Shown here: positions 13,026-13,322 of the stretch, in pieces
Numbering within the stretch: position 1 is the stretch's first letter
Layout of the letters: the number at the start of each line of letters is the position of its first letter
DNA from: Clostridiales bacterium
GTDB taxonomy: Bacteria; Bacillota; Clostridia; Christensenellales; CAG-138
Length of the DNA stretch: 64,000 bases
NCBI GenBank assembly: GCA_004557245.1
Contig: SFEL01000014.1
Location: 2,093-66,092 of the forward strand
Direction: 5' to 3'
Made by a program: the position numbers and the translations under genes
Notes under the pieces: model-generated
What the model was told of the DNA's origin: nothing
Seen by the model: the letters and a program-made list of their open reading frames with translations, nothing else
Database searches by the model: none

Positions 13026-13050
13026 AGGAGCGGAAGTATTTCCGCTCCTT
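13026..13050 (+). repeat. Left copy of a 25-bp direct duplication (AGGAGCGGAAGTATTTCCGCTCCTT), itself a terminator-like hairpin
   Basis: Identical 25-mer recurs at 13298-13322. The two copies bracket the multi-hairpin element. Confidence 0.85.
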
Positions 13051-13297
13051 AGTCTGTCGAAAAACCCCGAGGTTGATAAGGGGCCGCAGCCCCTTATGTT
13101 TAGTCCGGCTCTGGCGACATGTGCGTCAGAACGGATGAAAACCCAGAGGTTTTCGTACTTTGCGGGTTTTGCCGCCCGGAGGCCCGCCGCAGCGGGTCAG
13201 TTCTGGCCCGTTTCCCGGGGCGGAACCTCATATTTTTTGCAAGGCAAAACCCGTAAAACTCAAAAAAGTGGCGTTCAGCCACTTTTTTGACACTCTG
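13051..13297 (+). repeat. Multi-hairpin intergenic repeat element, copy 1 (subtype a, with an extra insertion in hairpin 4)
   Basis: Shares the modules GGTTGATAAGGGGCCGCAGCCCCTTAT, CTGGCGACATGTGCGTCAGA, GAAAACCCAGAGGTTTTC, GGGTTTTGCC..GGCAAAACCC and AAAAAGTGGCGTTCAGCCACTTTTTT with the copies at 22217, 39711, 42428 and 54353. Confidence 0.85.
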
Positions 13298-13322
13298 AGG
13301 AGCGGAAGTATTTCCGCTCCTT
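13298..13322 (+). repeat. Right copy of the 25-bp direct duplication
   Basis: Exact repeat of 13026-13050. Confidence 0.85.

Follow-up and report, generated by a model that had tools for sequence, protein, structure and literature searches.

The duplications made by Correia/NEMIS, RUP, BOX, ERIC, bcr1 and SPRITE elements are 2–9 bp long and arise at targets that are defined by sequence. PATEs carry neither terminal inverted repeats nor target duplications, use a short conserved target sequence and show a strand bias. ISCbo5, an ISBma2-like member of the IS1182 family that is also present in C. novyi-NT, occupies hairpins at the ends of genes in C. botulinum group III (PMC3098183). ISBma2-type elements are also named among the mobile attenuators, terminators that belong to full-length insertion sequences or to their relics beside genes (PMC2965389). 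Hairpin-equal target duplication is thus already recorded for IS1182 elements; a literature search found no mechanistic study of it in this family.

Here we describe a repeat that occurs five times in a 64-kb window, by which we mean the whole stretch of DNA that was analysed. Like the bacterial MITEs (Correia/NEMIS, RUP, BOX, ERIC, bcr1 and SPRITE), it is short, non-coding, intergenic and multi-copy and has a stable fold, terminal repeats and a target duplication; like SPRITE of S. pneumoniae, it carries a terminator-like hairpin (PMC3184786). Unlike them, it makes duplications of 13–31 bp that are defined by structure. With the mobile attenuators it shares an IS-derived terminator hairpin that has been spread around the genome, whereas no MITE family with hairpin duplications is described among these (PMC2965389). 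The evidence presented below makes it very probable that the element is a non-coding IS1182-family MITE that inserts into terminator hairpins and duplicates the whole hairpin. It is a further example of the hairpin-equal duplication of that family.

Copies and modules of the element in the window

The H1 pattern GGTTGNTAAGGGGNCGCANCCCCTTAT matched the window at positions 13071, 22237, 39730, 42449 and 54360, always on the + strand, while none of 100 shuffled windows contained a match. A covariance model trained on the five window copies matched each of them over its full length (13051–13295, 22217–22412, 39710–39902, 42429–42625 and 54340–54540) with scores of 172–213 bits. Both searches therefore returned the five same-strand copies that a preliminary description of the window had listed. 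The ordered hairpin modules H1–H5 that it had proposed were recovered as well: a repeat finder and a MAFFT alignment placed them in the same order in all five copies (Table 1). The multi-hairpin element is ~195–250 bp long and falls into two subfamilies, with copies 1, 2 and 4 in one and copies 3 and 5 in the other, which differ in sequence and keep the helices. In copy 1, the 3′ arm of H5 continues into the right terminal repeat.

Table 1. Positions of the element copies, their modules and adjoining features in the window.
Feature	Positions	Strand	Description
Upstream 25-bp target-site duplication	13026–13050	+	host terminator hairpin AGGAGCGGAAGTATTTCCGCTCCTT; exact repeat
Copy 1 (MITE, 247 bp)	13051–13297	+	extra ~50-nt insert in H4 loop
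Left terminal inverted repeat, copy 1	13051–13065	+	AGTCTGTCGAAAAAC; family consensus CAGTCTGTCRAAAAA
H1, copy 1	13071–13097	+	hairpin GGTTGATAAGGGGCCGCAGCCCCTTAT; readable as a promoter (TTGATA, 16 nt, TATGTT)
H2 hairpin and outer stem, copy 1	13104–13135	+	TCCGG..CTGGCGACATGTGCGTCAG..CGGA; helices 3 and 4
H3 hairpin, copy 1	13137–13154	+	GAAAACCCAGAGGTTTTC; helices 5 and 6
H4 hairpin, copy 1	13164–13252	+	GGGTTTTGCC...GGCAAAACCC; variable apical insert; helix 7
H5, copy 1	13262–13288	+	AAAAAAGTGGCGTTCAGCCACTTTTTT; A-tract, stem, T-tract; resembles a two-way terminator
Right terminal inverted repeat, copy 1	13283–13297	+	TTTTTTGACACTCTG
Downstream 25-bp target-site duplication	13298–13322	+	AGGAGCGGAAGTATTTCCGCTCCTT; exact repeat
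Terminal-repeat remnant by copy 2	22198–22215		ttagtgtatcgaaaaggc; follows hairpin at 22176–22197
Copy 2	22216–22414	+	canonical terminal repeats; no duplication
Copy 3, subfamily 2	39710–39902	+	degenerate ends
Copy 4	42429–42625	+	degenerate ends
Copy 5, subfamily 2	54340–54540	+	non-canonical ends; no duplication

Four copies had been said to start within about 60 nt of the stop codon of a + strand gene. We count only three, at distances of 52 nt (copy 1), 56 nt (copy 2) and ~0–11 nt (copy 5). Copy 4 lies ~110 nt past a called 65-aa ORF, and copy 3 comes after tandem repeats, beside a LytR gene on the minus strand. Indels between copies are not multiples of 3, so that no coding frame is conserved, and in an all-against-all ORF clustering the ORFs that run through the element cluster only over the element itself. 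The earlier view of the element as non-coding is thus upheld.

Insertion into host hairpins and later fate of the copies

The 25-mer AGGAGCGGAAGTATTTCCGCTCCTT is found exactly twice in the window, directly outside copy 1, and was absent from shuffles, which confirms the exact duplication reported before. For the empty-site comparison we used 10 metagenome contigs that encode a DUF1015 protein identical to that of the window, the identity of the gene being a Pfam assignment. Nine of the ten carry a single 25-mer and no element, and in nine of ten the gap between the convergent DUF1015 and Metallophos genes is ~75 nt; this gap is 347 nt in the window and in a contig (L115, GCA_034172665.1) that is filled in the same way, with a hairpin, the 247-bp element and a hairpin. 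The empty allele reads TAACAT, one 25-mer hairpin and GCCATATG; the filled allele reads TAACAT, hairpin, 247-bp element, hairpin and GCCATATG, and is longer by 272 bp, that is, by the 247-bp element plus 25 bp. Because nine of the ten contigs with the identical DUF1015 protein hold one 25-mer and no element, we conclude that copy 1 arrived by genuine insertion and duplicated a 25-bp target site. The proposed insertion footprint in the DUF1015 terminator is borne out by the single hairpin at the empty sites. The strain comparison also revealed insertion polymorphism, and the duplicated 25-mer was not seen at the element-free locus.

The preliminary description had asked whether copies exist beyond the window. 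A scan with the H1 pattern, which covered one genome per species, gave at least 96 loci. The main hosts among the loci listed are several uncultured Clostridia/Clostridiales MAGs, two MAGs holding at least 13–14 loci each; further hosts are a gut MAG from the Hadza (CAKTYU01) and one assigned to Christensenellaceae. Searching the 96 loci listed and the window by nhmmer with a 199-nt consensus produced 86 matches. Four loci came from a scan of viral sequences, two of them MITE copies, and blastn with the consensus against a plasmid collection gave only a chance 27-nt match.

The imperfect inverted repeat noticed at the ends of copies 1 and 2 belongs to a 15-bp terminal inverted repeat that ~40 related copies among the matches listed have in common. 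Full-length copies end in CAG(T/A)(C/G)TGTC(A/G)AAAAA ... TTTTT(C/T)GACA(C/G)(T/A)CTG; the left-end repeat of the MITE can also be written CAG(T/A)(C/G)TGTC(A/G)A(A/T)AA. Among the matches listed, 38 copies are full-length and have 50-nt flanks on both sides; a direct duplication of 13–31 bp (median 22.5) flanks 28 of these 38, and 10 are without a clean duplication. The duplications lie no more than 3–4 nt from the element ends, mostly 0–1 nt, and each of the 28 is a different host hairpin. Hairpin duplication is thus the rule of the family. At 24 of the 28 duplicated sites the end of an ORF (≥90 codons) lies no more than 150 nt away on at least one flank, and the targets are therefore hairpins at gene ends. 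Typically the first base of a duplication is A and the last is T, so both junctions read TCAG on their own strand, the junction falling between T and C.

The claim of a common orientation holds for the five window copies, all of which are on the + strand, and fails as a property of the family. Seventy scorable copies divide 37:33 relative to local GC skew (p = 0.81), which on MAG contigs is only a proxy for replication direction. With respect to flanking genes, an ORF that ends nearby is co-oriented and upstream only in 8 copies, convergent and downstream only in 6, and present in both arrangements in 10. Neither comparison, with GC skew or with flanking genes, revealed an orientation bias, and the same-strand arrangement in the window is not a family trait.

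Occupancy varies among strains at the sites of copies 1, 2, 4 and 5; copy 3 is present in seven of seven related contigs with enough flank. A clean duplication is absent at copies 2–5. The copy 2 site, which follows a rhodanese gene, is a hot spot where, among strains with an identical protein, some have a copy of subfamily 1, some one of subfamily 2 and some copies in reverse orientation; copy 2 lacks a clean duplication because of this turnover and of the terminal-repeat remnant that adjoins it. The site of copy 5, which is not a hairpin and where the element ends are odd, is empty in at least 6 related contigs by alignment (8 of 10 as gene spacing suggests) and filled in the window and in one other contig, whose allele has a hybrid interior. 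The non-canonical ends, missing duplication and hybrid allele suggest an exchange between copies. Terminal repeats, duplications and strain polymorphism together agree with the mobile, non-coding, MITE-like family that had been proposed.

At the site of copy 4, where the window has a full copy, four related contigs hold only a ~45-bp minimal form, in which the left repeat runs straight into the H5 loop and the right repeat. What this form lacks relative to the full copy is the segment bounded by two direct repeats of GGAAAAGT. We read the minimal form as a deletion product; the reverse conversion is also possible. Such solo hairpins were found at three more loci (L062, L071 and L079) and, in some strains, after the LytR gene, and other internal deletions are common among the copies. 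Copies decay by internal deletion, and one route, with the left repeat and the 5′ arm of H5 that matches it as endpoints, would leave the ~45-bp solo hairpin. As a separate observation, several contigs end ~345 nt upstream of a DUF5758 gene, near copy 4.

Relation to IS1182 elements and alternative origins

Autonomous IS1182-family elements were examined for the same features. ISCbo5 on plasmid p3BKT015925 (NC_015418) contains an unannotated 454-aa ORF with DUF772, DDE_Tnp_1_6 and DDE_Tnp_1 domains, whose closest database relatives are named IS1182-like ISCno1 or ISBma2 transposase. Its left end is CAGGCTGTTGATAAA and its right end AAAAGCCTCC..GGAGGCTTTTTGAACAATCTG, the repeat pair that we compared with the MITE being CAGGCTGTTGATAAA / CAGATTGTTCAAAAA; a 30-bp hairpin sequence, directly repeated, borders ISCbo5 on both sides. 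Another IS, from Bacillota, is present on 45 contigs with the ends CAGACTGCTGACAAA ... CGTCAGTAACCTG; at four sites it lies between duplicated hairpins of 14, about 17–18, 21 and 21 bp, and a promoter-like TTTACA-18-TATAAT is located just inside its left repeat, upstream of the transposase gene. The start codon is within ~55 nt of the left repeat in GC-rich metagenome copies. With a strict regular expression, end pairs of the form CAGnnTGnTGAnAAA were detected in 24 of 80 metagenome IS1182 loci, where 37 of 40 ends adjoin a hairpin of at least 6 bp, compared with 12 of 240 internal control positions. In the metagenome copies that were inspected, the right repeat is continuous with a hairpin. 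On many of the metagenome IS1182 contigs the hairpin on one side is not the same as that on the other, which we attribute to chimeric assembly or recombination of the 1.5-kb repeat in short-read assemblies.

The terminal repeats of the element and of the ISBma2/ISCno1/ISCbo5 group follow the same pattern, CAGnnTG..A.AAA; in both, a hairpin with a T-run adjoins the right repeat, the targets are gene-end hairpins, and the duplication varies in length and equals the hairpin. Because the terminal repeat, the right-end T-run hairpin (H5) and the hairpin-length duplication are all common to both, we assign the element to the IS1182 family. It differs from the group in being only ~200 bp long and having no transposase gene. 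Its interior, H1–H4, is unrelated to the IS1182 members examined and matches none of them, and its left repeat is one base shorter than most of theirs.

According to the mechanism we propose, the element would be moved in trans by an IS1182-family DDE transposase whose gene lies at another place in the genome. The autonomous partner would be a ~1.5-kb element with the ends CAGTCTGTCRAAAAACCCCGG... and ...AAAAAGTGGC..GCCACTTTTTYGACACTCTG. On each DNA strand, the transposase would join a ...CTG-3′ end to the host hairpin at its 5′ base, probably attacking the base of an extruded cruciform, and the usual target would be an intrinsic terminator at a gene 3′ end. As the stagger would equal the length of the hairpin, gap repair would duplicate the whole hairpin.

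The window had been described as free of transposase genes, and tblastn with the IS1182 transposase likewise gave no match in its 64 kb. An autonomous partner with matching ends, which the preliminary description had proposed to look for, did not emerge: no autonomous IS with the exact MITE ends was present in the window or in the 96 loci listed, and all-against-all ORF clustering found no recurrent transposase in these loci. Searched against the same loci by tblastn, the ISCbo5 transposase matched only a different IS, in Alkaliphilus (L078), which lies directly against a hairpin. Protein searches seeded with ISCbo5 and with the two elements whose terminal repeats are closest to the MITE (L198, CAGGCTGTCGAGAAAC; L227, CAGCCTGTTGAAAAACC) reached no clades beyond Clostridium, Bacillaceae and Paenibacillus. 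Neither H1 nor H5 was present in any IS from the protein searches, the 80 metagenome loci or the viral scan, and nhmmer with the MITE profile gave 0 matches in the 80 metagenome IS1182 loci.

That no partner was found in the searches run, and that a 1-nt gap and 2–3 bases set the left repeat apart from most IS1182 ends, would be in keeping with a MITE moved by a transposase of another family whose ends are merely similar. We consider this unlikely, since three independent features coincide with those of IS1182, namely the sequence of the repeat, the hairpin fused to it at the right end and the hairpin-length duplications, and such duplications are rare among IS families. Still less likely is an origin as chromosomal small-RNA genes, each consisting of an H1 promoter, a structured RNA and an H5 terminator, that were spread by ordinary duplication. 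Such genes would explain why promoter-like H1 and terminator-like H5 frame the element, why covariation is strong and why copy 3 is found in every related contig examined. They would not be expected to give precise empty sites with target duplications, terminal inverted repeats, both orientations at one locus (copy 2) in different strains or dozens of near-identical copies at unrelated sites. An RNA product could be a secondary property of the MITE.

The mechanism suggested in the preliminary description, that of an IS200/IS605-derived PATE moved as single-stranded DNA by a Y1 (HUH) transposase that recognises subterminal hairpins, is contradicted by these data. The element does resemble PATEs in being small, hairpin-rich and non-coding, and its five window copies lie on one strand. 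Unlike PATEs, it has 15-bp terminal inverted repeats and 13–31 bp duplications and shows no strand bias: the 37:33 division relative to GC skew is accompanied by a balanced orientation relative to flanking genes, and the copy 2 locus holds either orientation. The left end adjoins no conserved 4–5 nt target, the flanks being unrelated hairpins, and the ends match IS1182 elements; we therefore regard a PATE as highly improbable. We attach an equally slight probability to insertion by a retroelement or integrase, whether through SINE-like target-primed reverse transcription, as a class C group II intron or by a Cas1-like integrase copying a palindromic repeat. The target here is a terminator hairpin, and class C group II introns insert after terminators; whole palindromes are copied, much as in CRISPR repeat duplication; and some copies look truncated at one end. 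These, however, are internal deletions in which the final CTG, or some of the downstream hairpin, is retained, and LINE-like 5′ truncation was rejected on this ground. No intron or ribozyme of Rfam was matched in the window. Casposon duplications are fixed in length, whereas those of the element track the hairpin, and group II introns and retroelements are not known to have terminal inverted repeats such as those of the element. The IS1182 elements, which encode DDE transposases, behave in the same way as the element.

Internal structure, predicted signals and implications

Copy 2 folds with −87.4 kcal/mol (z = −7.4 relative to shuffles). The covariation check suggested for the hairpins was run on 64 copies aligned to the model, a fitted alignment in which many near-identical, non-independent copies overstate the number of independent events: 95.6% of cells were paired, and 39 of 58 pairs showed double changes, counts in which arm-to-arm correction in palindromes could imitate selection. 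In controls where the partners were slid by 1–3 columns 40–52% of cells were paired, and no shuffle equalled the real values. Double changes affected 11 of 11 pairs in H4 (helix 7) and 8 of 13 in H5, while the long-range P1 pairing (helix 1) was weakly supported, mostly by G-U pairs. In this model-fitted alignment the inner hairpins thus appear to co-vary strongly. A divergent copy on a viral contig keeps all the helices with a different sequence. Comparison with Rfam 15 gave no match for the window at gathering score and only chance-level matches for the region of copies 3 and 4 at E up to 5; in 15 loci of the H1-sharing family, Rfam returned nothing for the element.

H1 of copies 1 and 2 (TTGATA-16-TATGTT) agreed with 9 of 12 promoter positions in a promoter scan and reads as a predicted sigma-70-type promoter. 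In three unrelated loci (L032, L041 and L058) the H1 motif immediately precedes a ribosome-binding site and a start codon, so the promoter reading is favoured. A K-turn reading of H1 was discarded, as inspection revealed no tandem G-A pairs. With its A-tract, stem and T-tract, H5 is terminator-like on both strands and reads as a predicted two-way terminator. Insertion cuts the upstream hairpin copy off from its own T-run; H5 probably restores termination there, which would make insertions nearly neutral. H1 may be a former transposase promoter that now directs a ~145-nt structured RNA comprising H2–H5.

The H1 motif recurs in a multi-copy element of Alkaliphilus and other Bacillota that is unrelated to the MITE and unannotated. 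From this, H1 could be taken as a conserved regulatory or protein-binding hairpin in a more speculative view, to which we give rather low credence: the MITE would be a mobile self-contained transcription unit with an H1 promoter whose spacer forms the hairpin, a ~145-nt H2–H5 RNA under selection and H5 as a two-way terminator, planted by an IS1182 transposase at the bases of extruded terminator cruciforms.

Identification as an IS1182-family MITE accounts for an abundant unannotated repeat in genomes of gut Clostridia (Christensenellales-like), and the element may account for contig breaks in assemblies of its host genomes. With dozens of insertions that are precise and have empty-site counterparts, it provides a natural data set for structure-directed transposition, a clean record of how hairpins are targeted, combined with an interior that is structurally conserved and possibly expressed. 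In the host genomes, terminators are often doubled and lengthened by ~200 nt of structured sequence, which could alter 3′ UTRs and read-through.

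A second element sharing the first hairpin

We detected a second, unannotated multi-copy element that has in common with the multi-hairpin element of the window only the first hairpin, H1, and the GWTCAAT that follows it. It was found in Alkaliphilus, in the Bacillota genome Soudan_17 and in M1-B18, directly 3′ of terminator T-runs. Its parts follow a set order: a palindrome (TTTAATAGGAAAGT..ACTTTCCTATTAAA), H1, a stem-loop region containing AGGAGG and a terminator with the end GCTTTTGTTC. No duplication was present at its Alkaliphilus, Soudan_17 and M1-B18 sites, and no Rfam match was obtained for the 15 of its loci that were scanned. 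At one locus of the Soudan_17 Bacillota MAG, an OLE RNA gene (518 bits) lies directly downstream of it.

At three loci, from Atribacteria MAGs and one Clostridiaceae MAG, H1 precedes ordinary genes, with the ribosome-binding site and start codon 30–55 nt downstream of the motif. In Atribacteria, tandem related hairpins precede the motif.

Coordinates of the features described in this part
Feature	Source	Locus and position
H1-sharing element	Alkaliphilus	L015, L020, L021, L022, L025, L035, L051, L053, L056, L070, L078
H1-sharing element	Bacillota Soudan_17	L008, L011, L023, L030, L047, L087
H1-sharing element	M1-B18	L013, L017, L085
OLE RNA gene	Bacillota Soudan_17	L030 268-883
H1 upstream of ordinary genes	Clostridiaceae and Atribacteria MAGs	L032 6055; L041 3486; L058 1483
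Full element or solo hairpin form at LytR terminator	Other strains	L151 3289-3522; L150 3286-3326; L155 1701-1741; L156 1641-1679
IS1182-family IS	Alkaliphilus peptidifermentans	L078 2861-3175
Unannotated gap	p3BKT015925	L098 20133-21284
Tandem ~307-bp and ~263-bp units	Window	39093-39710 and 41148-41700
Low-GC stretch	Window	30001-32000
117-nt direct repeats	Window	30117-30233; 32661-32777
63-nt polypurine/polypyrimidine hairpin	Window	35234-35296; 42342-42404

Occupied sites and IS1182-family insertions in other genomes

In the window, no element occupies the terminator that follows the LytR gene. Other strains have either the full element or its ~40-bp solo hairpin form at this terminator.

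In Alkaliphilus peptidifermentans, an IS1182-family IS with the left end GAGACTGTTGACAAAGTCCACC abuts the upstream palindrome of an H1-sharing element, and the N-terminus of its transposase is 62% identical to that of ISCbo5, an IS1182-family element on the C. botulinum plasmid p3BKT015925. Unannotated gaps of this plasmid contain mobile-element genes, namely a group II intron reverse transcriptase, an IS21-type transposase and IstB (IS21-like genes in L097/L098).

At another locus (L199), an IS1182 copy lies between two hairpins that are mutually inverted rather than direct copies (loop TTCCA versus TGGAA). This arrangement could reflect either inversion of the segment between palindromic duplications or a chimeric assembly. 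Comparably, at the copy 2 locus in L124 the element and a terminal-repeat remnant are inverted.

Other repeats in the window

A 63-nt polypurine/polypyrimidine hairpin (CTTCTTTCTCTTTTCTTTTC..GAAAAGAAAAG..) occurs in two copies at 95% identity, the second of which lies a short way upstream of copy 4 of the element. A low-GC stretch (GC 0.37 versus about 0.55 elsewhere) has 117-nt direct repeats of 74% identity on either side and may be an inserted island.

The window also has tandem units of two lengths, ~307 bp and ~263 bp. Both sets contain small hydrophobic ORFs, for example MMKLLVILFALLREVKSVTITIRKK (minus strand) and MIELIIILFVALKREIKS (plus strand); the 307-bp units also have a strong promoter, TTGACA-17-TATAAT, and BsrG was a weak Rfam match for the units (E 0.005 and 0.055). 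By their sequence features, both sets look like type I toxin-antitoxin-like loci arranged in tandem.
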